From: Burkholderiales bacterium
Lineage (GTDB): Bacteria; Pseudomonadota; Gammaproteobacteria; Burkholderiales; Burkholderiaceae_C
Reading direction: 5' to 3'
Length of the DNA: 64,000 nt
Assembly: GCA_947451035.1 (NCBI GenBank)
Contig: CANFXR010000003.1
Location: 221 to 64,220, forward strand
Positions 3-36,623 of the stretch are shown here, piece by piece; the first letter of the stretch is position 1, and the number at the start of each line of letters is the position of its first letter. The notes under the pieces are model-generated. The model did not search any database and was not told the origin of the DNA. It saw only the letters and a program-made list of their open reading frames with translations. Position numbers and translations under genes: made by a program.

Positions 3-2612
3 TTGCTCGATGACGAAATGTGGCTGCACCGCCTGCGGCAGGCGAGCGCGCTCAGCGGCATCACGCTGGTGGCCGCGGGCGATGTGCACTTTCATGTGCG
101 CTCGCGCAAGCCGCTGCAAGACGTGCTCACCGCCACGCGCGTGGGCCGGCCGCTCACCGAATGCGGCCTGGCGCTGCAGCCCAACGCCGAGCGGCATTTG
201 CGCACCCGCGTGCGCCTGGCGCAGACCTACCCGGCCGAGCTGCTGGCTGAAACGCTGGTGGTGGCCGCGCGCTGCCGTTTCAGCCTGGCCGAGCTGCGCT
301 ACCAGTACCCCGACGAGGTGGTGCCCGCCGGCGAAACGCCCGGCTCGTACCTGCGCCGCCTCACGTTCGAGGGGGCAGGGCGGCGCTGGCCGCAGGGGGT
401 GCCGGCGGCGCTGCAGCTGCAAATCGAGCACGAGCTCGAACTGATCGGCGAGCTGCGCTACGAGCATTACTTTTTGACGGTGGCCGACATCGTCACCTTC
501 GCGCGCTCGCGCCACATCCTGTGCCAGGGGCGCGGCAGCGCGGCCAACAGCGTGGTGTGCTTTTGCATCGGCGTGACCGAGGTCGACCCGGCGCGCATGA
601 GCGTGCTGTTCGAGCGCTTCATCAGCCGCGAGCGCAACGAGCCGCCCGACATCGACATCGACTTCGAGCACGAGCGCCGCGAGGAGGTGCTGCAGTACCT
701 GTACGCCAAGTACGGCCGCGACCGCGCCGCGCTCACCGGTGTGGTCATCAGCTACCGGCCCAAGAGCGCGCTGCGCGACGTGGGCAAGGCGCTGGGCTTC
801 AGTGTGGCCACGCTCGACGCGGTGGCGCGCGAGCACTCGCGCTGGGACGGCTGCGAGGTGCGCGCCGAGCGGCTGGCCGACGCCGGCCTGTCGGCCGACG
901 ACCTGCAGGTGCAGCAGCTGCTCAAGCTCGCCGGCCAGCTGCTGGGTTTCCCGCGCCACCTCAGCCAGCACACCGGCGGCTTCGTGCTCACGCGCGGCTT
1001 GCTGTGCCGCATGGTGCCCATCGAAAACGCCGCCATGCCCGATCGCACCGTCATCGAATGGGACAAGGACGACCTCGACGCCATCGGTTTGCTCAAGGTC
1101 GACTGCCTCGCGCTGGGCATGCTCACGGCGCTGAGCAAATCGCTGCGCTTCATCGGCGAGCGTCTGGGCGGCGTGTTCGAGATGCAAGACATCCCGAGCG
1201 AAGACCCCGCCACCTACGACATGGTGTGCCGCGCCGACACCGTGGGCGTGTTCCAGATCGAAAGCCGCGCGCAGATGAGCATGCTGCCGCGCTTGAAGCC
1301 GCGCTGCTTCTACGACCTGGTGATCGAAGTGGCCATCGTGCGCCCCGGCCCCATCGTGGGCGGCATGGTGCATCCGTACCTGAACCGGCGCCAGGGCAAG
1401 GAGCCGGTCAGCTACCCGAGTGCCGCGCTCGAGCAGGCGCTGGGCCGCACGCTGGGCGTGCCGGTGTTTCAGGAGCAGGTGATGCAGATCTCGATCCTGG
1501 CCGCCGGCTTCACGCCGGGCGAGGCCGACGGCCTGCGCCGCGCCATGGCCGCCTGGAAGCGCAAGGGCGGGCTTGAGAAATACCACGCCAAGATCATCGA
1601 CGGCATGACCTCGCGCGGCTACGACGAGGCCTTTGCACGGGCCATCTTCGAGCAGATCAAGGGCTTTTCGGAGTACGGCTTTCCCGAGAGCCATGCGGCC
1701 TCGTTCGCCTTGCTGGTCTACGCCAGTTGCTGGATCAAGTGCCACCACCCGGCCGAGTTTCTGGCCGCGATGCTCAACTCGCAGCCGCTGGGTTTTTATT
1801 CGCCGTCGCAGCTGGTGCAAGACGCCCGGCGCCACGGCGTCGAGGTGCGCGCGGCCGATGTCATGCACAGCGATGTCGACTGCACGCTCGAAGGCCTGCC
1901 GCATCCGCCGGCGGTGCGCCTGGGCTTGCGGCTGATCGCCGGGCTGTCAGCCGAGGCGGCCGCGCGCATCGTGGCCGCCCGCGGCGAGCAGGTGTTCGAC
2001 AGCGCCGACGACCTGGCCCGCCGCGCCGATTTGCAGCACCACGAGATGAAACTGCTGGCTGCGGCCGATGCGCTGATGAGCCTGTCGGGCCACCGCCGCC
2101 AGCAGGTGTGGGAGGCAGCCGCCTGGCGCGCCGCGCCGCTGCTGCTGCGCGAGGCACCCATCGATGAAGACGTGCTCGAGCTGCCGAGCGCACCCGAGGG
2201 CGAAGAGATCGTCTTCGACTACGCCGCGCTGGGCCTGAGCCTGCGCCGCCATCCGCTGGCGCTGCTGCGGCCGCAGTTGCGCGCGCGCCGGCTGCTCAGC
2301 GCCGAACAGCTGGCCGCCGTGCCCCACGGCCGCGCGGTGCGCTGCTGCGGCATCGTCACCTTGCGCCAGCAGCCCGAAACCGCCAACGGCACCACCTTCG
2401 TGTCGCTCGAAGACGAAACCGGCGTCGTGCAGGTGATCTGCTGGAAGTCGCTGCGCGAGCGCCAGCGCAGCGTGCTGCTGCGATCGCGGCTGCTGGCCGT
2501 TCACGGCACCTGGCAGCGCGAGGGTGCGGTGTGCAACCTGATCGCCGCGCAGCTCGAAGACCTCACGCCGCTGCTCGGGCGGTTGATGACCGACAGCCGC
2601 GATTTCAAGTGA
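3..2612 (+). CDS. dnaE2: Error-prone DNA polymerase DnaE2 (Pol III alpha family), 5' end cut by window edge
   Basis: The frame is open from the left edge. Pol III alpha motifs are present (GRGSAANSVVCFCIGVTEVDP, PDIDIDFEH, VFQIESRAQM, LGFYSP). An OB-fold C-terminus ends in SRDFK with no long tau-binding tail, which fits DnaE2/ImuC. Confidence 0.85.
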   Translation: MLDDEMWLHRLRQASALSGITLVAAGDVHFHVRSRKPLQDVLTATRVGRPLTECGLALQPNAERHLRTRVRLAQTYPAELLAETLVVAARCRFSLAELRYQYPDEVVPAGETPGSYLRRLTFEGAGRRWPQGVPAALQLQIEHELELIGELRYEHYFLTVADIVTFARSRHILCQGRGSAANSVVCFCIGVTEVDPARMSVLFERFISRERNEPPDIDIDFEHERREEVLQYLYAKYGRDRAALTGVVISYRPKSALRDVGKALGFSVATLDAVAREHSRWDGCEVRAERLADAGLSADDLQVQQLLKLAGQLLGFPRHLSQHTGGFVLTRGLLCRMVPIENAAMPDRTVIEWDKDDLDAIGLLKVDCLALGMLTALSKSLRFIGERLGGVFEMQDIPSEDPATYDMVCRADTVGVFQIESRAQMSMLPRLKPRCFYDLVIEVAIVRPGPIVGGMVHPYLNRRQGKEPVSYPSAALEQALGRTLGVPVFQEQVMQISILAAGFTPGEADGLRRAMAAWKRKGGLEKYHAKIIDGMTSRGYDEAFARAIFEQIKGFSEYGFPESHAASFALLVYASCWIKCHHPAEFLAAMLNSQPLGFYSPSQLVQDARRHGVEVRAADVMHSDVDCTLEGLPHPPAVRLGLRLIAGLSAEAAARIVAARGEQVFDSADDLARRADLQHHEMKLLAAADALMSLSGHRRQQVWEAAAWRAAPLLLREAPIDEDVLELPSAPEGEEIVFDYAALGLSLRRHPLALLRPQLRARRLLSAEQLAAVPHGRAVRCCGIVTLRQQPETANGTTFVSLEDETGVVQVICWKSLRERQRSVLLRSRLLAVHGTWQREGAVCNLIAAQLEDLTPLLGRLMTDSRDFK

Positions 2613-2967
2613 ATCCCGGCGAGCGCACCGCCTGAGCGAGCTGCTTTCGGGCCACGTGGGACGCCGCAGCCGCTGAACACGCCTTCAGACGGCCTTAAGG
2701 ATTGTTTCAGCAAGGGTTAACTCGTAACGACTTGCAACCAGGTGCTGCGGGATGCGCACCACACCATCGACGGACCCAGAGCCCGTTCCGGACCACGGTG
2801 CAAGCAAGCCTCCCCGGGGGCGCGGCGACGTGGCTGGGTGCTGCCGGCGTTGATCAACAGCAACGCGAAGGCATCTTCTTCAACTCACCCTCTCGAAATC
2901 GCACGTGCAAATCCCACGAACGCCCGGATACATCTGCACACCGCAAGACCCTGCGAGCGTCCAGACA

Positions 2968-3438
2968 ATGGGTTTGCCGACTCTTGATTTACTTCTTTTC
3001 GTCACCAAGACCATGCGTTTGCCTCACCTGTCACCTGCCAAATCCGACCCCAGCGCACGCCTGCTGTGGAGCGGCGTGTGCCTGGGTGCGCTGGTCTGGC
3101 TGCTCGCCCGGCAGCCGCTCGCCATGCCGTCGTGGTCCACCGTGTGGCTGCTCGCCGGCGCGCCGGTCGTCGAAGAAGTGATCTTCCGGCTCGGGCTGCA
3201 ACAAGAGCTCCTGTCCCGTGTGCGCTCGGCCGCCGTGGCCAATGTCGCCACCGCCGTGGTCTTCGCGCTGGCGCATGGCCTGAGCCAAGGCACGGGGCTG
3301 TCGCTGCTCACGCTGCTGCCGGCGCTGGTCATCGGTTCGATCTTCCAGCGCTCGCGCCATGTGGCGCCTTGCATCGCGCTGCACGCCGCTTTCAACGCCA
3401 TCTGGCTTGTCTTGCCCTCCACCCTCTTTTCAAGTTGA
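2968..3438 (+). CDS. CPBP-family (CAAX-type) glutamic intramembrane protease, small Mrt-like form
   Basis: Multi-TM protein with the CPBP signature motifs EEVIFR, FALAHG and HAAFN. The start is ambiguous (ATG 2968 or ATG 3013, neither with a clear SD). The stop lies 7 nt before the next gene. Confidence 0.7.
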   Translation: MGLPTLDLLLFVTKTMRLPHLSPAKSDPSARLLWSGVCLGALVWLLARQPLAMPSWSTVWLLAGAPVVEEVIFRLGLQQELLSRVRSAAVANVATAVVFALAHGLSQGTGLSLLTLLPALVIGSIFQRSRHVAPCIALHAAFNAIWLVLPSTLFSS

Positions 3439-3445
3439 GATCTCC

Positions 3446-6400
3446 ATGAACACTGCCCTACACACCTCGAAGTTCAAGGCCTGGAAGCAGCTGGTGGCCG
3501 TGGCCTGCGTCGGCATGCTCACGTCGATGTCCGCGCATGCCGACAACCCGGTCGCTGGTGCCACGCTCTACGCCAGCAACTGTTCGGGCTGCCACGGCGG
3601 TGCGCCGCTGACGAGCAATGGGTCCAAGATCTACAACGCGCGCAACGCGCGCCTCTGGATCCAGAGCAACATCAACAGCAACAACAGCGGCATGGGCTCG
3701 CTGCGCACCATGACCGTGCAGCAGGTCGCCGATGTGGCGGCCTACCTCGGCAACTCGCCTTCGAGCTTGACCTTCGCGTCGACCAACGTCGGCGTCACCG
3801 CGGCCACGCAGACGGTCACCGTCAAGGCCAGCCTGACGAACGCCACCTACGCGCTCAGCGCCCTGACAGTGAGCACCAGCGGCGACTTCGCGCGCTCGGG
3901 CGGCACTTGCGGCACGACCCTGGCCACAGGCCCCACCGGTTGCACGGTGATCGTGTCGTTCACGCCCACGGCAGCGGGCGCGCGCACCGGCACGCTGAGC
4001 ATTGGCCATTCCGGCACGATCACGCCGATCGCCATTGCGCTGAGCGGCACCGGCGCAGGCACCCCGGCGCCAGCCCCCGTGGCGTCCATCACACCGACTT
4101 CGCTGACGCTGGCGACCACCGCCATCGGCAACACCAGCGCGGCGCAAAGCGTGACCGTGAGCAACACGGGCAACGCAGCGCTCTCGCTGTCGGCGATCAC
4201 GCTGTCCAACCCGGCTGACTACATCATCAGCGGCGGCACCTGTGCTGCGCCTGGCAGCGTGGCCGCTGCCGGGAACTGCACCATCTCGGTGGCGTTCAAG
4301 CCGTCGGCGGGTGCCACCGGCGCTCGCAGCGGCACGTTGAGCATCACCCACAACGCCGCGGGCAGCCCCGGCAGCGTGACGCTCACCGGCAGCGCCACTG
4401 CGGCGCCGGCCCCGGTGGCCGCGCTGGCGCCCGTCTCGCTGTCGTACGGCAGCCTCAACGTGGGCACTGCGGCCTCGGCACAGACCGTCACGCTGTCGAA
4501 CACCGGCAACGCCGCATTGACCCTGGGCACGCTGTCGATCAGCAGCGGCACCGAGTTCTCCATCAGCGGCGGCACCTGCACGGCGGGCGGCACGGTCGCC
4601 GCTGCCGCCAGTTGCACCATCAGCGTGGGCTTCACGCCGTCGGCGGCAGGCGCACGCACCGCCAACCTGGTCGTCACGCACAACGCGGCCGGCGCATCCA
4701 GCACCACCAGCCTGTCGGGCACCGGCGTGGCGCTGACGCCGGTGATCGGCGTGTCGCCCACCACGCTGAGCTTCACGCAGACGATTTCCACGACATCGGC
4801 AGCCCAAACCGTGACCGTGAGCAACAGCGGCACCGGGCCGCTGACCCTCAGCGCCCTGACGCTCAGCGGCACCGCCTCGGCTGACTACACCCGCGGCGGC
4901 ACCTGCACGCCCAGCACGGTGGTGGCGGCTGGCGCCAACTGCACGGTGACGTTCACCTTCACGCCGGGCGCGGTGGGTGCCCGCACGGCCAGCCTGGCGA
5001 TCACGCACAACGCTGCCGGCTCGCCGTCAGCGGTCACGCTCAACGGCACCAGCACGGCCGCGCCGACGCCGGCCATCTCGCTCAACGCGACGACGCGCAC
5101 CTTCACGTCGCAAGTGGTGGCCACCACCAGCGCCAGCCAATCGGTGACGGTCAGCAACAGCGGCACCGCTGCCCTGACGTTCAACGCACTGACGCTCGCG
5201 GGCAGCGCCTCGGGTGACTTCACCCGCGGTGGCACCTGCACGCCCACCACGGTGCTGGCCGCTGCCGGCACTTGCACGGTGACCTTCACCTTCACGCCGG
5301 GCGCAGTGGGTCCACGCAGCGCCACGCTGACGCTCTCGTCTGATGCCAGCAACGGTGCTGCGGCGATCAGCCTCGCCGGCACCGGCGCGGCCGCTCCGGC
5401 GCCTGCCGTCTCGCTGTTGCCAGGCTCGCTGGCCTTTGGCAACCAGACCGACAGCGTGACCTCCACCGCACGCACCGTCACCTTGTCGAACCCCGGCTCT
5501 GCCGCGCTGAGCATCTCGGGCATCACCGCCACCTCGGGCTATGCGGTGACCCACAACTGCGGCGCCAGCCTGGCTGCGGCGGCGAGTTGCACCCTGTCGG
5601 TGACCTTCACCCCGGCCGGCCAGGGCGCTGCGCCTGGCAGCGTGTCGGTGGCCTCGAATGCGGCCGGCTCGCCGCACTCGGTGAGCCTCACCGGCACCGG
5701 CGTGGCCGCATCGCCGGTGCTGGCCTGGGTGGGGAGCACCACCACGCTGGCGTTTGGCAACCTGACCGTCGGTTCGGCCGCCACCACGCAGACCCTCAGC
5801 CTGATCAACAACGGCCCCGGTGCCGTGACGCTGTCGGGCTTCACGTTCGCTGGCGCGAATTCGGCTGACTACTCCGTCAGCGGTGGCACCTGCGCGCTGA
5901 GTTCGCTGGCGCAAGGTGCGAGCTGCACGCTCACGCTGTCGTTCGGACCCGGCGCGGTCGGTGCACGCAGCGCCACGCTGCAGGTCACCTCGACCGGAAC
6001 CAACCCGCCGGACGTGGCGCTCAGCGGCACTGGCACCGCACCGGCGCAGCCTGCGGCCGTGCTGTCGCCCCCGGTGCTGAGCTTCAGCGCGCTGCCGGGT
6101 GCCGCCGCCACGGATCAGACGCTGACGCTGCAAAGCTCCGGCAATGCCGTGTTGACGGTCACCGGGCTGCGCATCGCCTCGGGCTCGTTCACGCTGGCAC
6201 CGGCCGCGACCAACGGCTGCGGCACGCCGCCGTTCGACTTGATGCCAGGACAGAGTTGCACGGTGGTGGTGGGCTTGTCCGGCAAGGTAACCGCCTTGCA
6301 GGCCGGCAGCGTGTCCAGCACGCAGTCCGGTGTGCTCGAGATCGACACCAGCGCTTCCGTGTCGCCGCTGCAGGTGCCGGTCCAGGTCGTCGTGCTTGAC

Positions 6401-6553
6401 GTGGCCGCGACGCCTGTGCCCTCGGTCAGCAGCAATTCCGGCGGTGGCGGCGGCTGCTCGATCGCCCGCGGCAACACGCTGCTCGACCCGACGCTGTGGC
6501 TGCTCACGCTCGTTGCCGCCGGCGTGCTGTGGTACCGCCGCGCCCGCCGCTGA
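3446..6553 (+). CDS. Secreted monoheme cytochrome-c domain protein with eight choice-of-anchor-D/Ig-like repeats and a Cys-containing C-terminal sorting signal (1035 aa)
   Basis: ATG at 3446. Signal peptide ending MSAHA. CSGCH heme motif at nt 3581-3595. Eight repeats of about 105 aa, each with a GGTC...C-T-I/V cysteine pair. The tail reads GGGGGCS, then a hydrophobic helix, then RRARR. Confidence 0.8.
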   Translation: MNTALHTSKFKAWKQLVAVACVGMLTSMSAHADNPVAGATLYASNCSGCHGGAPLTSNGSKIYNARNARLWIQSNINSNNSGMGSLRTMTVQQVADVAAYLGNSPSSLTFASTNVGVTAATQTVTVKASLTNATYALSALTVSTSGDFARSGGTCGTTLATGPTGCTVIVSFTPTAAGARTGTLSIGHSGTITPIAIALSGTGAGTPAPAPVASITPTSLTLATTAIGNTSAAQSVTVSNTGNAALSLSAITLSNPADYIISGGTCAAPGSVAAAGNCTISVAFKPSAGATGARSGTLSITHNAAGSPGSVTLTGSATAAPAPVAALAPVSLSYGSLNVGTAASAQTVTLSNTGNAALTLGTLSISSGTEFSISGGTCTAGGTVAAAASCTISVGFTPSAAGARTANLVVTHNAAGASSTTSLSGTGVALTPVIGVSPTTLSFTQTISTTSAAQTVTVSNSGTGPLTLSALTLSGTASADYTRGGTCTPSTVVAAGANCTVTFTFTPGAVGARTASLAITHNAAGSPSAVTLNGTSTAAPTPAISLNATTRTFTSQVVATTSASQSVTVSNSGTAALTFNALTLAGSASGDFTRGGTCTPTTVLAAAGTCTVTFTFTPGAVGPRSATLTLSSDASNGAAAISLAGTGAAAPAPAVSLLPGSLAFGNQTDSVTSTARTVTLSNPGSAALSISGITATSGYAVTHNCGASLAAAASCTLSVTFTPAGQGAAPGSVSVASNAAGSPHSVSLTGTGVAASPVLAWVGSTTTLAFGNLTVGSAATTQTLSLINNGPGAVTLSGFTFAGANSADYSVSGGTCALSSLAQGASCTLTLSFGPGAVGARSATLQVTSTGTNPPDVALSGTGTAPAQPAAVLSPPVLSFSALPGAAATDQTLTLQSSGNAVLTVTGLRIASGSFTLAPAATNGCGTPPFDLMPGQSCTVVVGLSGKVTALQAGSVSSTQSGVLEIDTSASVSPLQVPVQVVVLDVAATPVPSVSSNSGGGGGCSIARGNTLLDPTLWLLTLVAAGVLWYRRARR
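3760..6400 (+). repeat. Eight tandem, diverged coding repeats of about 315 nt inside the cytochrome-c/Ig-repeat gene
   Basis: A recurring peptide pattern (S-L-x-F/L-G...V-G...Q-T/S-V-T-V/L-S-N-x-G...L...G-G-T-C...C-T-V/I-x-V/F-x-F-x-P...G-A-R-x-x-T/A-L...) was counted eight times by eye. Boundaries are approximate. Confidence 0.6.
6440..6550 (+). other. Putative C-terminal sorting signal (Gly-rich/Cys motif, TM helix, Arg cluster)
   Basis: The last 37 codons read GGGGGCSIARGNTLLDPTLWLLTLVAAGVLWYRRARR. Confidence 0.6.
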
Positions 6554-6632
6554 TGAGCCACCGCCACTCACAGCCACACACTGAACCTCACGCTTGATCC
6601 TTTTTGCCGACGAGACACTTTTGGAGCCCACC

Positions 6633-7142
6633 ATGAACAACACATCCCTGACCCGCGCGCTGCGCCTGACCGCGCTGTGCCTGGCCACCCTGGCCGCCCC
6701 GGCGGCCTGGTCGCTCGAGGCCGGTGCGGCCGCGCCTGAACTGAGCCTGCCCGGCCTGAAGGACGCGGTGTCGCTGGCCCAGATGAAGGGCAAGGTCGTC
6801 TACGTCGACTTCTGGGCCTCGTGGTGCGGCCCGTGCAAGCAGTCGTTTCCGTTCATGAACGAGCTCAAGGCCAAGTACGGCGCGCAAGGCTTCGAGGTGC
6901 TGGCGGTCAATCTCGACGCCAAGCGCGGCGACGCCGACAAGTTCCTCGCCGAGGTGCCCGCGCAGTTCACGGTGGCCTTCGACACCAGCGGCGAGAGCGC
7001 CAAGCGCTTCGAGGTCAAGGGCATGCCGTCGTCGTACCTGGTCGGCCGCGACGGCAAGATTGCTTCGGCGCACAAGGGCTTTCGAGAGCAAGATCGCAAG
7101 GAACTCGAGTCGCGCATCGTCCAGGTGCTGGGCGCCCCGTGA
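6633..7142 (+). CDS. TlpA-like periplasmic thiol:disulfide oxidoreductase (thioredoxin fold)
   Basis: Signal peptide (MNNTSLTRALRLTALCLATLAAPAAWS). WCGPC active site within FWASWCGPC. Redoxin-type length. Confidence 0.85.
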   Translation: MNNTSLTRALRLTALCLATLAAPAAWSLEAGAAAPELSLPGLKDAVSLAQMKGKVVYVDFWASWCGPCKQSFPFMNELKAKYGAQGFEVLAVNLDAKRGDADKFLAEVPAQFTVAFDTSGESAKRFEVKGMPSSYLVGRDGKIASAHKGFREQDRKELESRIVQVLGAP

Positions 7143-7180
7143 CATCGCTGCACCTTCCACCCCTTGCCGAGGATCCCGTG

Positions 7181-7417
7181 ATGCCCCATACCCCCCGACG
7201 TTCTTTGCGCGTGTTGAGCGCGCTGCTGGCCGCCAGCGCCCTGGGCGGCTGCGCCATGGCGCCCCCGCAACCCTGGGAGCGCGGCAACCTGGCCCGCCCC
7301 GAGATGACGATGGGCGGTGATCCGCTGGACCAGCGCTTCGTCCAGCACATCTACGGCAGCAAGGAAAACGCCTCGGGTGGCTACGGCGTCGGTGGAGGTG
7401 GCTGTGGCTGCAACTGA
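7181..7417 (+). CDS. DUF4266-like small lipoprotein ending in GGGGCGCN
   Basis: Lipobox LGGC after a short signal peptide. 78 aa. C-terminal Cys-Gly-Cys at nt 7403-7411. It sits in the recurrent TlpA/DUF4266/DUF3570/ApbE neighbourhood; the family call is from memory. Confidence 0.65.
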   Translation: MPHTPRRSLRVLSALLAASALGGCAMAPPQPWERGNLARPEMTMGGDPLDQRFVQHIYGSKENASGGYGVGGGGCGCN

Positions 7418-7427
7418 CCCCAAATCC

Positions 7428-8576
7428 ATGAAGACCGCCCGCAACGAAAAGGCCGGAGCGATCATCGCCGCCGCGCTGGCGCTGCCCGGCGTGATGGCCC
7501 CCGGCCTGGCGCGCGCCGATTCGGCGCCCGAGCACGGCGAGATCGCCCTGAAGTACCTGCACTACGACGATTCGCAGCCCGGCCTGTCGCGCATCAAGGT
7601 GAACGCGCCGTCCCTTTACGTGATGGTGCCGCTGTCGCCCAAGTGGTCGGTCGAGGGCTCGCTGGTGTCCGACAGCGTGTCGGGTGCCACGCCGCGCTAC
7701 CACTCGGCGATCTCCGGTGCGACCAAGCACATGAAGGACCAGCGCAAGGCGCAAGACGTCAAGGTCACGCGCTACGAGGAGCGCTCGAGCTACTCGTTCG
7801 GCGTGAGCCACTCCAAGGAGCACGACTACGAGAGCACCGCGGGCTCGCTCGATGCCAGTTTTTCCAGCGACGACAACAACCGCACCTGGAACGTGGGCGT
7901 GGGCTTTTCCGACGACAAGATCGGTTCGCACAACAACGCCGCGCTGCACAAGACCAAGCAGACCGTCGAGCTGATGGCCGGTGTGACGCAGGCCTGGACG
8001 GCCAACGATCTGGTGCAGTTCAACGTGTCGCACAACCGCGGCCACGGCTACTACTCCGACCCCTACAAGGATCCGGACGTGCGGCCCGACTATCGCAACC
8101 AGTCGATTCTGCTCACGCGCTGGAACCACCATTTCGACGGGATGCACTCGACGCTCAAGACCAGTTATCGCTACTACCGCGACAACTTCGGCATCAAGGC
8201 GCACACGCTGGGCCTGGACTGGGTGCAGCCGCTGGGCGACAAGTTCACGGTGACGCCGTCGCTGCGCTACTACACGCAAACCGCGGCCAAGTTCTATTAC
8301 GACCCGGTGTACGACCCGGACGTGGGTGCGCCCTATCCCGTGGGCTACTTCGACAACCCGCCGAAGTACATCTCCGCCGACCAGCGCTTGTCGTCCTTCG
8401 GCGCCATCACGGTGGGCCTGAAGGTGGCCATGAAGGTGACGGCGGACTGGACGGTCGATGCGAAGGTCGAACGCTACGAGCAGCGCTCCGACTGGCGGCT
8501 GGGCGGGCGCGCTTCGCCGGGGCTGGATCCGTTTCGGGCGACCTTCTTCCAGTTCGGCGTGAGCAGGCGCTTCTGA
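7428..8576 (+). CDS. DUF3570-like predicted outer-membrane beta-barrel protein
   Basis: Signal peptide (..GLARA/DS). Alternating Tyr/Gly-rich beta-strand pattern. Terminal ..FGVSRRF with a C-terminal Phe typical of OMPs. Contains DSVSGAT and SAISGAT (nt 7671-7724). Confidence 0.65.
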   Translation: MKTARNEKAGAIIAAALALPGVMAPGLARADSAPEHGEIALKYLHYDDSQPGLSRIKVNAPSLYVMVPLSPKWSVEGSLVSDSVSGATPRYHSAISGATKHMKDQRKAQDVKVTRYEERSSYSFGVSHSKEHDYESTAGSLDASFSSDDNNRTWNVGVGFSDDKIGSHNNAALHKTKQTVELMAGVTQAWTANDLVQFNVSHNRGHGYYSDPYKDPDVRPDYRNQSILLTRWNHHFDGMHSTLKTSYRYYRDNFGIKAHTLGLDWVQPLGDKFTVTPSLRYYTQTAAKFYYDPVYDPDVGAPYPVGYFDNPPKYISADQRLSSFGAITVGLKVAMKVTADWTVDAKVERYEQRSDWRLGGRASPGLDPFRATFFQFGVSRRF

Positions 8577-8579
8577 GCC

Positions 8580-9572
8580 ATGCGCGCCGCCGTGTCACCC
8601 CTTCGAAAGCGCGCCAAGGGTGCGCCGTCGAAGGCGCACGCCTATCGCTTCGAGTTCGATGCGATGTCCAGCGTGTGCGAGATCCGTCTCGACGACGCAC
8701 GCGGTGAAGGCGAGCCGGTGCTGGCGCTGGCGGCCGAACAGGCCATCAGCGAGGTGCGTCGCATCGAGGTGGCGTTTTCGCGCTACCGCGCCGACAGCAT
8801 CGTGTCGCGCATCAACGCGGCAGCGGGCGGGCCTGACGTGGTGGGGGTGGACGACGAGACCGCCTCGCTGCTGAACTTTGCGGCGCAGCTGCATGCGTTC
8901 AGCGACGGGCTGTTCGACATCACCTCCGGCGTGCTGCGCCGGGTCTGGGATTTCAAGGCGCAGCGCGTTCCTGATGAGGCGGCGCTGCAGCAGGTGCTGC
9001 CACTGATCGGCTGGTCGCAGGTGGAGTGGACGGGTCAGACGATCCGGCTGCCGCGGGCGGGCATGGAGGTCGACTTCGGCGGCTTCGGCAAGGAATACGC
9101 CGCCGACCGCGCGATGGCGGTGCTGCACGCCACCGGCCAGCGCCACGGCTACGTGAACCTGGGTGGCGACATCCGGGTGCTCGGGCCGCGTGCCGACGGC
9201 AGCGCGTGGCGCTTCGGCATCCAGCACCCGCGCCACGACGAGGGCACGATCGCCAGCGTCGAGTTGCGCGAGGGCGCGCTGGCCACCAGCGGCGACTACG
9301 AGCGTTACTTCGAGCAGGCGGGCCGGCGCTATTGCCACATCCTCGATCCACACACCGGCTGGCCGGTGACCCACTGGGCCAGCGTCAGTGTGACGGCACC
9401 GGCTTGCGTGGCGGCCGGCGCGCTCACCACGATCGCCATGCTCAAGGGCGCCTCGGCGCCCGAATTTCTCGCTGCCCAGGCCGCCACCGGCCTGGTCGTC
9501 GATACCGCGATGCGCAGCACGCGCATCGGCGCCGAGCACGACCGGCGCATCACCCAAGGAGAACAAGAATGA
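8580..9572 (+). CDS. apbE: FAD:protein FMN transferase (ApbE family)
   Basis: ApbE-type motifs are present (FSRYRADSIVSRIN, GLFDITSG, VDFGGFGKEYAADRA, NLGGDIRV, ATSGDYERYF, HILDP). No recognisable signal peptide or lipobox. Confidence 0.85.
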   Translation: MRAAVSPLRKRAKGAPSKAHAYRFEFDAMSSVCEIRLDDARGEGEPVLALAAEQAISEVRRIEVAFSRYRADSIVSRINAAAGGPDVVGVDDETASLLNFAAQLHAFSDGLFDITSGVLRRVWDFKAQRVPDEAALQQVLPLIGWSQVEWTGQTIRLPRAGMEVDFGGFGKEYAADRAMAVLHATGQRHGYVNLGGDIRVLGPRADGSAWRFGIQHPRHDEGTIASVELREGALATSGDYERYFEQAGRRYCHILDPHTGWPVTHWASVSVTAPACVAAGALTTIAMLKGASAPEFLAAQAATGLVVDTAMRSTRIGAEHDRRITQGEQE

Positions 9573-11419
9573 ACCTTCCACGATGGGCCCAGTGCCTGAG
9601 CGTGACCGCGGCCGCGCTGCTGTTCGCAGCCGTGTCGGGCGCCCCGGCGCTGGCCGGCGAGCCCGACTTTCTGGACCCGGCGCAGGCCTTCGTGGGCAGC
9701 GCCCGTGTGGGCAACGCGAAGACCGTGGAGCTGCGCATCGACGTCGCGCCGGAGTACCACCTCTACCGCGATCGCATCAGCGTCGAGGCCGAAGGGGCCG
9801 GTGCCACGCTGGGCGAAGTGGCCATTCCTGCGGGCAAGGTCGAGTTCGACACGAACTTCAACAAGAACGTCGAGGTGCTGCACGGCGCGTTGCTGATCCG
9901 CGTGCCGGTGCAGCCCACGGGCCGTGACTTCCGCTTGCGCGTGGTCTACCAGGGCTGCGCCGACAAGGGGCTGTGCTACCCGCCGCAAACCGCCTTCGTG
10001 AATGCCGACGCGCGCGACGGCCAGCTGCTGCGCGCGCAGTGGCAAGGCGAGGACGCCGCACCGGTCACCGTCTCGGACGTGGCTGTCGTGGTCGCGCCAG
10101 CGGTCGATGCCGCACCGGTGTCGCAAACCGCGAAGGTCGAGTCGGCACTCAAGTCGGGCAGCTTGCTCACCATCGCCGGCGTGTTTCTGGTGGCCGGCTT
10201 GCTGCTCGCCTTCACGCCTTGCGTGCTGCCGATGGTGCCCATCCTGTCTTCGATCATCGTGGGGCAGGGCGCACCGGTTTCGCGCACACGGGGCTTTGCG
10301 ATGGCGCTGGCCTATTCGCTGGGCATGGCGCTGGTCTACACCGCGTTCGGTGTGGTCGCCGGTCTGCTCGGCGAGGGGCTGGCCGCGGCGCTGCAAAACC
10401 CCTGGGTGCTGGGTGCTTTCGCGCTGATGCTGGCCACGCTGTCGCTGTCGATGTTCGGCGTGTTCGAGCTCCAAATGCCCAGCTTCATCCAAAGCCGCAT
10501 CACCGAGAGCTCGAGCCGTCTGCCCGGCGGCAAGTTCATGGGCGTGTTCGTCATGGGTGGCTTGTCGGCGCTGATCGTGGGCCCGTGCGTGGCCGCGCCG
10601 CTGGCCGGTGCACTGGTGTTCATCAGCCAGACGCGCGACGTCGTCATCGGCGGGCTGGCGCTGTTCAGTCTGGCCATGGGCATGAGCGTGCCGCTGCTGC
10701 TGGTGGGCGTGTCGGCGGGCTCGCTGCTGCCGCGCGCCGGCAGCTGGATGGAAGGCGTCAAGACCTTCTTCGGCGTGATGCTGTTGGGGGTGGCGCTGTG
10801 GATCGTCTCGCCGGTGCTGCCGGTGTGGGTGGTGATGTTGATCATCGGCAGCGGCTTGCTGGTCGCTGCGATCTACCTCAAGCTGTTTGACCGGCTGGCC
10901 GACACCGCTTCGGGCCGCCAGCGACTGGCCAAGGGCGCCGCGCTGGTGCTCGCCGTGCTGGGCGCCACGCAGGTGGTGGGCGCGCTGTCGGGCGGTGACA
11001 ACCCGCTGCAGCCGCTGGGGCATTTCGCTCGCGGCCCGAGCGCGGGTCCGGCCGCAACGCAGGCCACCAGCTTTCGGCGCATCCGCACCGTGGCCGAACT
11101 CGAGGCCGCGCTGAAGGTGACCGACCGTCCCGTGATGCTCGACTTCTATGCCGACTGGTGCGTGTCGTGCAAGGAAATGGAACACCTGACCTTCAGCCAT
11201 CCGACGGTGCAGCCTCGCATGGCCAACGCGCTGCTGCTGCAAGCCGACGTGACCGACAACTCGGCCGACGCCAAGGCGCTGCTCAAGCGCTTCGGGCTGT
11301 TCGGCCCGCCGGGCGTGCTGTTCTTCGACAAGCATGGCCGCGAGCAGGCCAACGCCCGCGTGGTCGGCTTCGTGCCGGCGCTGGGGTTTATCGCGTCGCT
11401 GGGGGCGGTCGGGCTGTAA
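9569..11419 (+). CDS. dsbD: Thiol:disulfide interchange protein DsbD
   Basis: The ATG overlaps the apbE stop (ATGA). Signal peptide and N-terminal DsbD-alpha domain (YQGCADKGLCYPP). Central multi-TM domain with CVLP and GPCVAAP. C-terminal thioredoxin domain with WCVSCK. Confidence 0.9.
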   Translation: MNLPRWAQCLSVTAAALLFAAVSGAPALAGEPDFLDPAQAFVGSARVGNAKTVELRIDVAPEYHLYRDRISVEAEGAGATLGEVAIPAGKVEFDTNFNKNVEVLHGALLIRVPVQPTGRDFRLRVVYQGCADKGLCYPPQTAFVNADARDGQLLRAQWQGEDAAPVTVSDVAVVVAPAVDAAPVSQTAKVESALKSGSLLTIAGVFLVAGLLLAFTPCVLPMVPILSSIIVGQGAPVSRTRGFAMALAYSLGMALVYTAFGVVAGLLGEGLAAALQNPWVLGAFALMLATLSLSMFGVFELQMPSFIQSRITESSSRLPGGKFMGVFVMGGLSALIVGPCVAAPLAGALVFISQTRDVVIGGLALFSLAMGMSVPLLLVGVSAGSLLPRAGSWMEGVKTFFGVMLLGVALWIVSPVLPVWVVMLIIGSGLLVAAIYLKLFDRLADTASGRQRLAKGAALVLAVLGATQVVGALSGGDNPLQPLGHFARGPSAGPAATQATSFRRIRTVAELEAALKVTDRPVMLDFYADWCVSCKEMEHLTFSHPTVQPRMANALLLQADVTDNSADAKALLKRFGLFGPPGVLFFDKHGREQANARVVGFVPALGFIASLGAVGL

Positions 11420-11470
11420 CGCACGGATTTCGCCTGTCACAGGGCGCGGCCACAATCAGTTCCCGGTCGT

Positions 11471-11511
11471 GATGGCCTGCAAGGTTCTGCCTTGCAGGCC
11501 ATCGTGATTTT
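11471..11511 (+). terminator. Rho-independent terminator after dsbD
   Basis: Perfect 14-bp stem (gatggcctgcaagg / ccttgcaggccatc), a 5-nt loop, then gtgatttt. Confidence 0.8.
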
Positions 11512-11543
11512 CGGGCCCGCCATTCACTCTGCGCAGTACACAG

Positions 11544-12440
11544 ATGAGCATCTCCGCCACCTCGAACTCCCATGAACGCGGCTTGCAGGTGGCCGTGGCC
11601 TTCTGCCTGCTCGATGTGTGCCTGACGGGGGGCGCGGCGTTTGCCTCGACCTCGCTCACCATCATGAGCGACCTGCTCAAGGAGTCGACTGACTTCCTGG
11701 CCGTGCTGGCGGCGTACCTCACGGTGCGCGCGGTGCGTCGCGCACCCGACGAGCGCTACGGCTACGGCATCGGCAAGCTCGAGAACCTGGTCAGCATGGC
11801 CATCGCCGTGGCGATGGTGGCGTGCGCGGGGTTCATCCTGATACAGGCGTCGCATCACCTGCGCGATCCGCAGCCCACCGAAGGCACGCTGCCCGGCATC
11901 GTGATCTTCTCGACCTATGCGGCGATCGGTTTCGGCATCTCGTTGCGCAACCGGCTCGAGCTGCGCAAGCGCGAGTCGGCGATCCTCGAATCACAGGCCC
12001 AGCTGTGGTTTTCCAAGGCGTGCTTCGACGCGCTGATGGCGCTCACGCTGATCACGCAGGTGGTGTGCCACGGGCAGCGCTGGAGCTTGTATCTGGATCC
12101 GATCGCGTCGCTGCTCGGCGTATTTTTCCTGCTGCACGCGGCCTGGGCGATCACCAGTTCATCGGTGGGTGACCTGCTCGATGCCAGCCTGTCCGAGCAC
12201 CTCCAGTTGCGCATCCTGCGCCAGCTGGTCGAGCGCTTCGACGACTACGACCGGCTGCACAAGATCCGCACCCGGCGCTCCGGGCCTCACGTGTACGTCG
12301 AAGTCTTTTTGCAGTTCGACCCCGCGCTGCTGATGCGCGAAGTGCAAAACCGCATCAACGCGATTGCCGCCCAGATCACCCGCGAGATTCCCGGCACGCA
12401 GGTGGTCATCGTGCCGTCGTGCGAGGCCCCTGCGGACTGA
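11544..12440 (+). CDS. Cation diffusion facilitator (CDF) family transporter
   Basis: Six-TM N-terminal part with CDF-like TM1/TM2 (ASTSLTIMSDLLKESTDF) and a cytoplasmic C-terminal domain (YVEVFLQFDP...). Confidence 0.75.
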   Translation: MSISATSNSHERGLQVAVAFCLLDVCLTGGAAFASTSLTIMSDLLKESTDFLAVLAAYLTVRAVRRAPDERYGYGIGKLENLVSMAIAVAMVACAGFILIQASHHLRDPQPTEGTLPGIVIFSTYAAIGFGISLRNRLELRKRESAILESQAQLWFSKACFDALMALTLITQVVCHGQRWSLYLDPIASLLGVFFLLHAAWAITSSSVGDLLDASLSEHLQLRILRQLVERFDDYDRLHKIRTRRSGPHVYVEVFLQFDPALLMREVQNRINAIAAQITREIPGTQVVIVPSCEAPAD

Positions 12441-12473
12441 GGGCGCACGCCGCCCGGGCCGGCCGCTGAACGA

Positions 12474-12689
12474 TCAGGGCGGGTCCGCGAGCAGCGACAT
12501 CACCAGCGTGTGGTAAGCCTCCCGCTCGGCCGTGGAACGTTGCTCGGGCGTGAGTTTCTCGCCGGCCAGGATGCGGCGCGACACCTGGGCCTGTGCGTCG
12601 CGCATGGCCTGCTGCTGGAGTTCTTGCGGGATGCGCCGGGCCTTGGCGGTCAGGCCATTGAGGGCGGTGGGAACGCTGTTGATGCCCAT
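12474..12689 (-). CDS. Hypothetical small protein (71 aa)
   Basis: ATG-started ORF in an otherwise empty gap downstream of the OlsB-like gene. Only a weak SD and no recognisable motifs. Confidence 0.3.
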   Translation of the reverse strand: MGINSVPTALNGLTAKARRIPQELQQQAMRDAQAQVSRRILAGEKLTPEQRSTAEREAYHTLVMSLLADPP

Positions 12690-20558: not shown

Positions 20559-20647
20559 GGTGGAAGCGGTGAGATTCGAACTCACGGTGGGGTTACCCCC
20601 ACGGCAGTTTTCAAGACTGCAGCCTTAAACCGCTCGGCCACGCTTCC
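20558..20647 (-). tRNA. tRNA-Ser (anticodon UGA), CCA encoded
   Basis: The reverse complement folds as a cloverleaf. It has acceptor GGAAGCG/CGCTTCC, anticodon stem GCAGT/ACTGC with loop CTTGAAA, a long variable arm (CGTGGGGGTAACCCCACC) and T arm GTGAG-TTCGAAT-CTCAC, and it ends in ACCA. Confidence 0.9.
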
Positions 20648-28526: not shown

Positions 28527-31085
28527 TCAGAGATTGCTGCTGGCGCGCACTTCCTCGAGCGAGGTGATGCCTTGCAGCACCTTTTCGATGCCGTCCTGGC
28601 GCAGCGTGCGCATGCCTTCGCTCATGGCCACGCGCTGCAACTCCTCGGCACGTGAGCCCGTCTGGATCATGCGGCGAATCCCGGGCGACACCGTGAGCAA
28701 CTCGTGCAGGCCGGCGCGGCCACGCTGACCGGTCTGGTTGCACGTGGCGCACCCGCTGCTCGAGTGGTGCATCAGCCGGCCCGAATCGCCAAAGCGTTCG
28801 GTCCAGTCCGCGCGCAGCGCCTCGCGGGTGAACAGCGGGTTGTCCTTCGGGCTGGTGTGCAGGTAGTCGGCCAGCAGCTCCTCGATTTCTTCTTCGGTGG
28901 CCGGCCGGCTGGTGAGGCAGGCCGTGCACAGGCGGCGCACCAGGCGCTGCGCCAGCACGACGAGCAGCGCGTCGGCGAAGTTGAACGGGTCCATGCCCAT
29001 GTCGAGCAATCGCGTCACGGTCTCGGGCGCGCTGTTGGTGTGCAGCGTGGACAGCACCAGGTGGCCGGTGAGCGAGGCCTCGACGGCCATGTGCGAAGTG
29101 TCCTGGTCGCGGATTTCGCCGACCATGATCACGTCCGGGTCGGCGCGCAGGAACGCGCGCAGCGCCTTGGCAAAGGTCCAGTCGATCCGCGGGTTGATCT
29201 GCACCTGGCGCAGTCCGGCCTGCGTGATCTCGATCGGGTCTTCGGCCGTCCAGATCTTGCGCTCGGGCACGTTGATGTAGCTCAGCGCCGAGTGCAGCGT
29301 GGTCGTCTTGCCCGAGCCGGTCGGCCCCACGCACAGCACCAGGCCGTAGGGGCGCTGGATGGCGCGCGTGAGCTGCTGGAAGTTGTGCTCGGTCAGACCG
29401 ATGCGGTCGAGTGGCATCGGCTTGGCCGACGTCAGGATGCGCATCACCACGTCTTCGAGGTTGCTGTGGGTGGGGATGGTCGCCACGCGCAGTTCGATGC
29501 GGTGCTGCGGCATGAACTTGGCGAAGTTGATCTTGCCGTCTTGCGGCTTGCGGCGCTCGGAGATGTCGAGGTCGCACATGATCTTCAGGCGGGCCACCAG
29601 CGCGCTGCGGTAGGTGGGCGGCAGCTCGAGGTAGGTGCGCAAGGCGCCGTCCTTGCGAAAGCGGATGCGGATCTTCTCGCGCCCCGGGTAGCTTTCGATG
29701 TGGATGTCGGACACGCCCTCACGGTGCGCCTCGACGATCATGTTGTTGATCAGCCGCACCAGCGAGTTGTCCGACTGCTCGATGGGCTTGTCTTCGTGCG
29801 ATGTGTCTTCGTTCTCGCGCTCGAGGCTCTCGACCAGTTGGTCGGTGCCGAACGCCGGCAGCGTATCGTCTTCGGATCGATCTTGCGGGGTCGCGCGCGG
29901 TCCGGTGGCCGCGCCGATCTGGTCGTAGGCCGCGTGCGTGCGCTCGTCCATCGAGCGGGACTGCCCGAGCACCGGCAGCACCTTCATCTGCGCCGAGAAC
30001 TCGGCCTCGTCGACCGCCTCGCGGCGGCGTGCGGGGTCGTCCAGCGCCACGACCAGGCGGCCCTCATGAACCAGCAGCGGCAGCATGCGCAGCCGCATGG
30101 CCACGGCGTAGGGCAGCTTGCGCAGCGCCTCGGCCTCGACCGGGAATGCATCCACGTCGACCAGCGGGTAGCCCATCTTGCGGGCCATCGCCACTTGCAG
30201 GTCGGGCCGCGTGACCACCCCGCTGCGCACCAGGATCTCGCCCAGCGGCACGCCGCGGTCGATTTCCTGCTGGCGCAGCGCGGCCTGCAAGTCGTTGATG
30301 TCGATCAGGCCCAGCGACATCAGCGCCTCGCCGATGCGCACCATGGGCATGCGCGACTGCTGATCGAGCGCGCTGACCAGCTGCCCGGGCGTGACGATGT
30401 TGCGCGACACCAGGATGTCGCCCAGCCGTTTCTCGCGCATGTGGCGCTGCTGCTCGGCTGCGCGCTCGACCTGAAGCGGCGTGGCGGACTTTTGCTCGAT
30501 CAGCACTTCGCCGATGCGCTGGCCGATGTCAAACGATGCGAATGCGCCGCTGGGCACAAAGGTACGCAACACCTCGCCCGAGTCGCCCTCGGGCTGGAAC
30601 AGGAACAGGCCGTACGGCGTTTCGATGTGGCCAACGGTCGAGCCGGACCACTCGCCGCCTTGTTTCCAGACCAGCTTGAAGGTCGTGGGCTTGCCGGGCG
30701 ACAGCGCCAGCCCGTTGGGCTCACCGTCTTCCAGGGGCTGAGGCGCCAATGTCGTGGTCAGCGTCAGCGAGCGGAACTGCTCGAAGCGCAGCAGCAATTC
30801 GGAGCGCGAGGGCGGCAGTTGCACCCAGGCGGAACGCCGGTCGGGCAGGAACGAACTCACGTGGCCTTGCATGTGCTTGTCGTTGAGACCGACGATGGTG
30901 CAAGGCAGCGGGCCCGACTGCGGCTCGGCCATCGGATAGATCGCAAACGGCGGCGCCGGCCAGCAAAACGCCGGGGCGTTGTGCTCGGTGTCTTCAGGCA
31001 CGGCCGGGTCGGTCAGGTCGACGGCGGCCGCCTCGTCAGTGCGATCGCGGTTGCTGCGCTTGGATGATGTCGTCATGTTGGCCAC
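28527..31085 (-). CDS. GspE/PilB-family secretion ATPase with a long N-terminal extension (852 aa)
   Basis: Walker A GPTGSGKTTT, Asp/His boxes and a tetracysteine motif (CTAC...CATC). T2SSE_N/MshEN-like repeats span aa 190-303. The first 189 aa have no motif I recognise. Start is GTG 31085 or ATG 31076. Confidence 0.85.
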   Translation of the reverse strand: MANMTTSSKRSNRDRTDEAAAVDLTDPAVPEDTEHNAPAFCWPAPPFAIYPMAEPQSGPLPCTIVGLNDKHMQGHVSSFLPDRRSAWVQLPPSRSELLLRFEQFRSLTLTTTLAPQPLEDGEPNGLALSPGKPTTFKLVWKQGGEWSGSTVGHIETPYGLFLFQPEGDSGEVLRTFVPSGAFASFDIGQRIGEVLIEQKSATPLQVERAAEQQRHMREKRLGDILVSRNIVTPGQLVSALDQQSRMPMVRIGEALMSLGLIDINDLQAALRQQEIDRGVPLGEILVRSGVVTRPDLQVAMARKMGYPLVDVDAFPVEAEALRKLPYAVAMRLRMLPLLVHEGRLVVALDDPARRREAVDEAEFSAQMKVLPVLGQSRSMDERTHAAYDQIGAATGPRATPQDRSEDDTLPAFGTDQLVESLERENEDTSHEDKPIEQSDNSLVRLINNMIVEAHREGVSDIHIESYPGREKIRIRFRKDGALRTYLELPPTYRSALVARLKIMCDLDISERRKPQDGKINFAKFMPQHRIELRVATIPTHSNLEDVVMRILTSAKPMPLDRIGLTEHNFQQLTRAIQRPYGLVLCVGPTGSGKTTTLHSALSYINVPERKIWTAEDPIEITQAGLRQVQINPRIDWTFAKALRAFLRADPDVIMVGEIRDQDTSHMAVEASLTGHLVLSTLHTNSAPETVTRLLDMGMDPFNFADALLVVLAQRLVRRLCTACLTSRPATEEEIEELLADYLHTSPKDNPLFTREALRADWTERFGDSGRLMHHSSSGCATCNQTGQRGRAGLHELLTVSPGIRRMIQTGSRAEELQRVAMSEGMRTLRQDGIEKVLQGITSLEEVRASSNL
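30177..30518 (-). other. Four tandem 30-aa MshEN-like (putative c-di-GMP-binding) motif units inside the ATPase
   Basis: The units are RIGEVLIEQKSATPLQVERAAEQQ, RLGDILVSRNIVTPGQLVSALDQQ, RIGEALMSLGLIDINDLQAALRQQ and PLGEILVRSGVVTRPDLQVAMARK. They start at aa 190, 220, 250 and 280. The comparison motif is RLGxx(LVI)(LVI)xxG(LVI)(LVI)xxxxLxxxLxxQ. Confidence 0.5.
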
Positions 31086-31230
31086 GAGAAATAGTCGGTG
31101 TCGATCGTCGGGAATGGCGCGTGGCCCGAGGCGAACCCACGCCCCTGCACGAGTGACGAACCCTCAGCGTGATATTTGCCGCAAAAAGGACGCGTTGGTG
31201 CCCTGATCTGCAGTGGGTTGTACACGCATA

Positions 31231-31542
31231 TCAGGGTTTTTCAGGTTTTCCCCGACGTTTGATCTCATGGCGCAGCGAACTCAGCAGCGGCCAGACCGCC
31301 AGCGCCAGTCGCACGATGCGACCGAGCCGCACACGCCGCCCCAGCAGCACGCCCAAGGGGGCGCCGATCAGCGCGGCCGGTGCCAGCCAGCTGCGCCAGC
31401 GCTCGACCCACCCGCCGGCGGCTTGCAGCGGTGCTGCGATCGCCTGACATCGGGCTTGCAGCGACTCGCGCTGACTCGCGGCGCGCGCCACCAGATGTTG
31501 GCGCCTGCGCTCGAGCAACCTCAGGCGCTCATCAAGCTTCAT
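31231..31542 (-). CDS. YqjK-like small membrane protein
   Basis: 103 aa with a coiled N-terminus and one TM helix. The ATG overlaps the upstream stop (ATGA). The family call is from memory. Confidence 0.5.
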   Translation of the reverse strand: MKLDERLRLLERRRQHLVARAASQRESLQARCQAIAAPLQAAGGWVERWRSWLAPAALIGAPLGVLLGRRVRLGRIVRLALAVWPLLSSLRHEIKRRGKPEKP

Positions 31543-31907: not shown

Positions 31908-31934
31908 CGAAGGGCTCCCGTTGAGGTGGCCGGC

Positions 31935-32807: not shown

Positions 32808-32829
32808 CGCCGGGGTGATGGCGCGCGCC

Positions 32830-33258: not shown

Positions 33259-33259
33259 C

Positions 33260-33958: not shown

Positions 33959-33962
33959 GGGG

Positions 33963-34379: not shown

Positions 34380-34429
34380 GCGTGCAGGCAGATCACCGCG
34401 CCGATCAGGGTCTGGCCCGACACCCCGGC

Positions 34430-35421: not shown

Positions 35422-35445
35422 GGGAAGTCCTTGGGGGTTGGTTCA

Positions 35446-36558: not shown

Positions 36559-36623
36559 CGACGGATTGTAGGTGGCGGGTGCTGCCGCACCCGGCGTCCA
36601 GGCGGCCGTCTTGCGGCGGGTGT

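Follow-up and report, generated by a model that had tools for sequence, protein, structure and literature searches.

The question raised by this locus is why a small CPBP-type intramembrane protease is encoded directly in front of a large exported protein that carries a haem motif, a long repeat region and a C-terminal sorting tail. The two genes lie near the start of a 64,000-nucleotide (nt) stretch of DNA from a Burkholderiales bacterium (GenBank assembly GCA_947451035.1, contig CANFXR010000003.1), hereafter called the window, to which all coordinates refer. By family assignment, the pair is a genuine example of the already catalogued MrtJ/JDVT-CTERM sorting system. The tagged protein, the cargo, is probably also an accessory subunit of a flavinylation module encoded immediately downstream, with which its haem would exchange electrons.

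The first-pass annotation had read here a small CPBP protein with several transmembrane segments and the motifs EEVIFR, FALAHG and HAAFN, followed seven nt after its stop codon by a 1035-residue protein with a signal peptide, a single CSGCH haem site, eight Cys-paired repeats of about 105 residues, and a tail of GGGGGCS, hydrophobic helix and RRARR. It had placed the two in the Cys-containing CTERM class that is linked to CPBP (Mrt-type) proteases, and had named a search of the NCBIfam models as the check. All of these features were recovered, and both proteins exceed the curated NCBIfam cut-offs for that class. The protease reading frame (2968-3438, + strand) has its three motifs at 3172-3189, 3262-3279 and 3382-3396, several hydrophobic windows along its sequence, and matches to the MrtJ equivalog model NF033192 (79.4 bits, cut-off 75, E 2.4e-22) and to the Pfam Rce1-like family PF02517 (1.6e-16). 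Residues E69, E70, R74, H103, H139 and N143 are invariant among 22 homologues. The second-best NCBIfam models, MrtS, Mrt_core and MrtX, all remain far under their cut-offs, with 35.6 bits against 100 for Mrt_core. Since the score for MrtX (NF040593) is 14.7 bits against a cut-off of 180, the window protease is best described as an analogue of MrtX and not as a member of that family. Because most homologues have 141-145 residues and their first Met corresponds to nt 3013, this position is more likely to be the true start of mrtJ than the ATG at 2968, which would give a protein of 156 residues.

The cargo tail, GGGGGC-SIARGNTLL-DP-TLWLLTLVAAGVLWY-RRARR, matches the JDVT-CTERM model NF033191 with 41.5 bits (cut-off 27, E 8.9e-11, residues 999-1034). 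By definition the tag has one Cys, a DP nine residues further on, a helix rich in Leu and a terminal cluster of Arg (Haft 2023, bioRxiv 10.1101/2023.06.07.544157, cited here and below for the accessible part of its text), and the tail follows this tripartite plan in every element. The MYXO-CTERM model TIGR03901 gave no match to the cargo, and neither did the GlyGly-CTERM or PEP-CTERM models (NCBIfam, E up to 1). One tagged tail is present in the 64-kb window, and JDVT/MrtJ genomes typically have one tagged protein.

Whether protease and tag belong together can be judged from related genomes. A scan with the MrtJ alignment, covering one genome per GTDB species, yielded 41 loci. Of its 18 proteobacterial loci with sufficient sequence on the downstream side, 17 contain an adjoining cargo with a GGC-x9-DP-helix-Arg tail (L003-L011, L013-L016 and L018-L021, with a frameshift in L015; L012 is the exception). 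Six further loci were found independently of MrtJ, via DUF3570 or the cytochrome domain, and five of them (L042, which is frameshifted, L043, L050, L052 and L054) have an Rce1-like gene directly upstream of a tagged cargo. Adjacency of protease and cargo is seen in more than 20 related loci, and the co-occurrence in relatives on which the first-pass annotation had staked its proposal beforehand was found in both sets. More distant CPBP matches from Actinomycetes, Planctomycetes and others (L022-L041) have no tagged neighbour and were not counted as MrtJ. At one locus (L009:3605-11419) the cargo precedes mrtJ, and the pair is flanked by genes for a 778-residue protein, an OmpA-domain protein and a Porin_4 porin.

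A natural contrast is provided by a sister family (P0249-P0312), recovered in the cytochrome-domain search, which has the same architecture of a cytochrome domain and choice-of-anchor D immunoglobulin (Ig) repeats. Its tail has the form SEDPAxRSN-V/Q-G-x-GGG-A (for example SNVGAGGGA), followed by a helix and Arg residues, and lacks both the signature Cys and the DP in 17 of 17 sequences. None of the NCBIfam CTERM models match this tail, with no GlyGly-CTERM or PEP-CTERM hit at E up to 0.1 in four Cys-less relatives, and it may represent an undescribed tag or a permanent membrane anchor. In the five contigs fetched (L046-L049, L053) no CPBP gene was found, and a six-frame hidden Markov model (HMM) search for CPBP/mrtJ in L046-L049 was negative. 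The tail without Cys and DP thus occurs without a CPBP gene whereas the tagged cargo occurs with mrtJ; tag and protease co-vary, which is independent comparative support for an enzyme-substrate relationship. The sister-family gene lies beside the DUF4266/DUF3570/ApbE genes in all five contigs, immediately upstream in four of them and at a distance of one gene in L047. As the Cys-less cargo also keeps this company, the cargo family as such, and not merely its tag, belongs with the flavin module.

The cargo carries a conserved haem domain. Its signal peptide, read from the sequence without a dedicated predictor, keeps its position in homologues, and CSGCH (residues 46-50) is the sole CxxCH in the protein. 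The N-terminus matches Cytochrome_CBB3 PF13442 with 30.0 bits (gathering score 27) and Cytochrom_C PF00034 with 22.8 bits (gathering score 21.3). Across an alignment of 18 cargo N-termini, C46, C49, H50 and M83 are invariant, as are the AAYLGN motif that closes the cytochrome domain and the first Ig Cys pair, C155/C166. Every cargo locus has a haem motif of either the CxxCH or the Cx4CH type, and the axial Met is kept in all homologues inspected. A loss of haem in close relatives without CxxCH was considered and ruled out, as these have Cx4CH at the same position (for example CATSGCH or CANSSCH); with this substitution, haem attachment appears to be conserved among cargo homologues.

In the AlphaFold2 model of the cargo N-terminus (mean predicted local distance difference test, pLDDT, 88.8), residues 35-102 are helical and are followed by a β-sandwich. 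The Ig domain dominates the Foldseek results for this model, with no cytochromes among the matches listed. The cytochrome assignment relies instead on a profile search against PDB sequences, whose matches (E about 2e-6) include cytochromes c6 and a lipoprotein cytochrome c. Motif, distal Met and small helical domain together identify the domain, at the level of sequence and model, as a class I c-type cytochrome. A word-indexed homologue search with the domain gave nine matches and no full-length cargo, and was superseded by an exhaustive search of representatives, which returned 396 proteins at E up to 0.001. The top matches contain many tandem copies of the domain, with up to 15 matched stretches (for example P0169, P0170, P0171). 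P0169-P0185 are large proteins with many tandem copies of the same cytochrome c domain type; several of the ones inspected (P0169, P0170, P0172) begin like lipoproteins and end in further modules rich in CxxCH.

Eight repeat units of 107-112 residues follow, with a pairwise identity of 21-60% (mean 39%) and one Cys pair each (155/166, 266/278, 378/390, 487/499, 598/610, 705/715, 816/827 and 925/938). The choice-of-anchor D model NF012200 covers them in eight stretches with 480.4 bits (cut-off 45, E 5.6e-147), and the Pfam families ASH, Cep192_D4 and HYDIN_VesB_CFA65-like_Ig match as well. With this value and the E-values of protease and tail given above, the features of the pair are far beyond chance. 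Foldseek relates the β-sandwich to HYDIN, CEP192, PapD-like domains and the Ig domains of VesB and VesC. The number of repeats varies among cargos from two in Ideonella to about nine, and the cytochrome domain is always kept. The short Ideonella cargos (L010, L016) combine a Cx4CH cytochrome domain and two Ig repeats with a Pro/Ala/Ser-rich linker of about 70 residues and a JDVT tag, so that a low-complexity spacer stands in for most of the stalk. The cargo as a whole has very few charged residues and an abundance of Ala, Thr, Ser and Gly. Antisense open reading frames with a high G+C content at third codon positions (GC3) over 3847-6567 were rejected as compositional artefacts of a high-GC gene rich in these residues; the sense frame has a GC3 of 0.89 and the HMM matches.

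The idea of one protease serving one cargo is upheld by the models and by adjacency, but the pair does not stand alone: mrtJ and the cargo gene open a conserved series of seven genes. Sixteen GTDB species representatives of Burkholderiales and Nevskiaceae share the one order mrtJ-cargo-tlpA-DUF4266-DUF3570-apbE-dsbD, which recurs in L043 and L054; in L050 all seven genes are present, with dsbD on the other strand. The position of the TlpA-like gene is kept in at least 16 loci. By Pfam, the five downstream genes provide all components of a DsbD-type flavinylation system, namely ApbE, DUF3570 with two [ST]GA[ST] motifs, a thioredoxin-like protein, DUF4266 with a CXC motif, and DsbD. The TlpA-like protein matches Redoxin and Thioredoxin_8 and not PF13899, and DUF4266 has its CGC at residues 75-77 of 78. 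The end of DUF4266, GVGGGGCGCN, is similar to the signature of Gly and Cys in the tag of the cargo (SGGGGGC, followed by S); SGGGGGC is also the predicted C-terminus of the cargo after MrtJ cleavage. For a homologue from C. luteolum, ApbE-dependent flavinylation of DUF3570 has been shown experimentally, while the function of the system is called uncertain (Méheust et al. 2021, eLife, PMC8238504, likewise cited for the accessible part of its text).

DUF3570 is predicted to be a 16-stranded outer-membrane β-barrel. Its AlphaFold2 model, built with 34 homologues, has a pLDDT of 81.5, a predicted template modelling score of 0.80 and 16 long strands, and the PDB matches listed by Foldseek are all outer-membrane barrels (PelB, BcsC, OmpG, PgaA) with TM-scores of about 0.5. 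Both SGAT motifs are located on a low-confidence loop (residues 89-98) between strands 3 and 4. The even-numbered strand connections all have 3-5 residues and the long ones are all odd-numbered, from which, by the usual porin topology rule, we infer that the flavinylation loop faces outward or into the lumen.

These observations fit a reading in which the cargo would be exported by Sec and receive one c-type haem at CSGCH, while its C-terminal helix would hold it in the inner membrane and leave the Arg cluster on the cytoplasmic side. On the model of MrtX and Rce1, the invariant Cys1004 would then be modified, probably lipidated, by a separate enzyme, after which MrtJ would cut just behind this residue and remove the helix. 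The product would be a C-terminally anchored cargo that can be moved outward. The analogy is drawn from Myxococcus xanthus, where MrtX cleaves MYXO-CTERM proteins in a Cys-dependent manner and is needed for their display at the surface; that another enzyme lipidates the Cys has been proposed there, not demonstrated (PMC11980579). A surface location of the cargo is assumed here on the same analogy. Rather than an isolated adhesin, the cargo would be a conserved accessory subunit of the TlpA-DUF4266-DUF3570-ApbE-DsbD module, with a haem domain on a stalk of eight disulfide-bonded Ig domains that exchanges electrons with the module. Its likeliest partner would be the flavinylated barrel DUF3570. 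This reading, a JDVT-CTERM/MrtJ sorting pair whose haem cargo works for the downstream module, is the one that we consider probable.

A more far-reaching version, which is unlikely, joins all seven genes into a previously unrecognised trans-envelope redox chain of three cofactor chemistries. Cytoplasmic reducing power would pass via DsbD to TlpA and to the CXC lipoprotein DUF4266 by thiol-disulfide exchange, and from there to two covalent flavin mononucleotides (FMN) on the outward- or lumen-facing loop of DUF3570. It would end at the monohaem cytochrome, lipid-anchored at the cell surface on its Ig stalk by MrtJ sorting. If true, such a chain would supply an end-point for the orphan flavinylation system of DUF3570, and a physiological role for MrtJ.

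Several points weigh against the reading that we consider probable. The protease exceeds the MrtJ cut-off by a small margin of only 4 bits, and the MrtJ-seeded sample is skewed towards close relatives, with search patterns that were derived from the alignment A1. The cargo of L051 has a sub-threshold tail (25.7 bits, with Cys and without DP) and a PilZ gene upstream, with no protease gene there. In L009, a Rhodocyclaceae metagenome-assembled genome, the pair occurs between OmpA-like and porin genes with no DsbD module within 10 kb, while L045 has the module without the pair, as do hundreds of clusters, about 600, in the accessible text of PMC8238504. From L009 and L045 together, the link between pair and module appears to be lineage-specific and not obligatory in either direction. 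The N-terminus of ApbE, MRAAVSPLRKRAKGAPSKAHAYRFEF, contains no recognisable signal peptide or lipobox, and its presumed partners are all exported; where the exported barrel would be flavinylated is thus left unexplained. The cleavage site, lipid and destination of the cargo are extrapolated from MrtX and Rce1. Finally, a single haem on a stalk of about 30 nm cannot by itself conduct electrons along that stalk.

In a different view of the stalk, the cargo would span the periplasm as a tether. Its anchor would stay in the inner membrane, as the helix in the Cys-less proteins or as a lipidated Cys after the MrtJ cut, and the Ig stalk would hold its haem domain across the periplasm at the inner face of the outer membrane. 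A permanent inner-membrane anchor fits the sister family, which retains helix and Arg cluster with no dedicated protease nearby, and a spanning role fits the long stalk as well as the Ideonella cargos, in which most Ig domains are exchanged for the Pro/Ala-rich linker instead of the protein being just shortened. On the other hand, in the relative that has been studied by experiment, MYXO-CTERM/MrtX, the tagged proteins reach the cell surface (PMC11980579), the variation in repeat number means that stalk length is not tightly fixed, and the DUF3570 flavin loop would point outward or into the lumen. We regard the tether as rather unlikely.

The downstream genes could also be explained by cargo maturation. 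TlpA and DsbD would then merely reduce the CxxCH for haem attachment and correct the eight disulfides, and the function of the cargo, such as adhesion or a surface layer, would be unrelated to the flavin proteins. Pathways that lead from DsbD to CcmG/TlpA-type proteins are the established route for the reduction of apocytochrome c and are named among DsbD-family functions in PMC8238504, the cargo has two haem cysteines and 16 paired cysteines, and its uncharged composition is like that of surface or adhesin proteins. Yet cytochrome maturation does not require DUF4266, DUF3570 or ApbE, which every module retains; the five genes also exist without a cargo, in L045 and in the clusters of PMC8238504, and the L009 cargo and its MrtJ manage without them. 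This explanation is quite improbable. Finally, it is highly improbable that the CPBP protein is of a bacteriocin-immunity or housekeeping type and lies upstream of the cargo by chance: many prokaryotic CPBP proteins do have other or unknown roles (Haft 2023; PMC11980579), and L012 and the distant L022-L041 have no tagged neighbour, but the gene is adjacent to a tagged cargo in the more than 20 loci above, is absent where the tail lacks Cys and DP, and belongs to a protease family that partial phylogenetic profiling ranks top by about 50 orders of magnitude (Haft 2023).

The reading of the locus as a sorting pair attached to a flavinylation module can be set against systems described earlier. 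The closest is JDVT-CTERM/MrtJ itself (Haft 2023; NF033191, NF033192), with which the window pair shares the passing of both models, tandem adjacent genes and the same plan of the tail. DUF4266, DUF3570 and TlpA had been noticed 'in a few of the species' as neighbours of some JDVT proteins, and were suggested to work with the mature cargo; the cargos of this subgroup were described as homologous over their full length (Haft 2023). Whereas that neighbourhood is presented as rare in the accessible text, it is the rule among the MrtJ relatives sampled here. The word 'cytochrome' is absent from this text, which does not take up the haem domain, ApbE/DsbD or the flavinylation context. In MYXO-CTERM/MrtX (PMC11980579) the CPBP core is homologous and the tripartite tag likewise contains an invariant Cys; this system provides the sole experimental evidence for the mechanism. 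Unlike MrtJ, MrtX is a housekeeping protease of about 35 clients, is unlinked to client genes, and acts on a tag that often reads GCGC and has no DP. The DsbD-type flavinylation system (PMC8238504) has the same five defining genes in the published arrangement; its accessible description mentions no cytochrome/Ig-repeat protein or CPBP protease, whereas here both head the cluster.

Two further comparisons are looser. GlyGly-CTERM/rhombosortase clients such as VesB of Vibrio cholerae have the same kind of Ig-like domain, followed by a Gly-rich tag, helix and Arg cluster, but their protease is of the rhomboid family and their tag is without Cys. Both VesB and VesC are clients of this system. The porin-cytochrome conduits of the MtrCAB type are a functional analogy only, in that an outer-membrane β-barrel is combined with a lipid-anchored cytochrome. 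MtrCAB-type cytochromes are decahaem proteins with N-terminal lipidation, and the barrel has no cofactor. Here, in contrast, one haem, a C-terminal tag and a barrel with predicted covalent flavins are combined, and the sequences gave no sign of a relationship. With just one CxxCH in its 1035 residues and no family match in NCBIfam or Pfam, the cargo falls outside the multihaem conduits.

The sorting pair as such is routine, as its proteins match NF033192 and NF033191, curated models by which NCBI names proteins in genome annotation. The first-pass annotation's remark that it knew of no characterised example is true experimentally, but both the system and the DUF4266/DUF3570/TlpA neighbourhood of this subfamily had already been described in silico (Haft 2023). 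Work on DUF3570 or DUF4266 of a later date did not turn up in a literature search. The added interest is in the conserved haem cargo, in its union with an orphan flavinylation module, and in the contrast between tagged cargos with a protease and untagged ones without. Two comparative-genomics observations are thereby joined, the JDVT-CTERM/MrtJ system of Haft, for which no physiological role is known, and the DsbD/DUF3570 flavinylation system of Méheust; the earlier link that was found is Haft's brief note on neighbouring genes. Both systems become approachable by experiment, with regard to what MrtJ-type sorting serves and what the flavinylated barrel talks to.

Table 1. Features of the mrtJ-to-dsbD locus in window coordinates.
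Feature	Coordinates	Strand	Description
mrtJ	3013..3438	+	141 residues from likely start; minimal CPBP/Rce1-like glutamic intramembrane protease
Cargo gene	3446..6553	+	1035 residues; signal peptide, cytochrome c domain, eight Ig-like repeats, linker, JDVT-CTERM tail
Cargo Sec signal peptide	3446..3541	+	residues 1-32, predicted cleavage between AHA and D
Cargo class I cytochrome c domain	3542..3760	+	residues 33-105; CSGCH 3581-3595, putative axial Met83 3692-3694
Eight tandem choice-of-anchor D Ig-like domains of cargo	3752..6394	+	ASH/PapD-like fold, one conserved Cys pair each
JDVT-CTERM tag of cargo	6440..6550	+	Cys1004 6455-6457, DP 6485-6490, helix TLWLLTLVAAGVLWY 6491-6535, RRARR 6536-6550
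TlpA-like periplasmic thiol:disulfide oxidoreductase	6633..7142	+	signal peptide; CGPC 6825-6836; PF08534 Redoxin 1.6e-23
DUF4266 small lipoprotein	7181..7417	+	lipobox LGGC; C-terminal end GGGGCGCN; PF14086 1e-21
DUF3570	7428..8576	+	SGAT at 7680-7691 and 7713-7724; PF12094 3e-63
ApbE FAD:protein FMN transferase	8580..9572	+	PF02424 2.2e-78; no recognisable signal peptide
Full-length DsbD	9569..11419	+	N-terminal, transmembrane and thioredoxin-like domains; PF11412, PF02683, PF13899

The seven genes from mrtJ to dsbD probably form one operon. They are separated by gaps of 7, 79, 38, 10 and 3 nt, followed by a 4-nt overlap of apbE stop and dsbD start, and apbE begins after its 3-nt gap in the same frame as DUF3570. 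A promoter/terminator scan of 2500-12600 found no promoter-like site, and no terminator-like site from 2500 to 11298, which weakly backs a single operon. An Rfam scan of the whole window gave no riboswitch upstream of mrtJ, its sole match being a tRNA at 20561-20647.

Upstream of mrtJ, a fragment of a DnaE2-like error-prone polymerase gene (3-2612) is followed by a 400-nt intergenic region; this gene is kept in the closest relatives only (L001-L005). Further along the window, the region 28527-42800 encodes an MshE-type secretion or pilus ATPase with an MshEN domain (28527-31085, - strand), TonB/ExbB proteins, the riboflavin enzymes RibBA (35446-36891) and RibD (37278-38405), and a protein with a PilX_N minor-pilin domain (39677-40984), for which no link to the sorting pair was established. 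Between 54000 and 64000 the GC content drops from about 0.68 to 0.53-0.60, which suggests that the last 10 kb of the window are a compositionally foreign segment.

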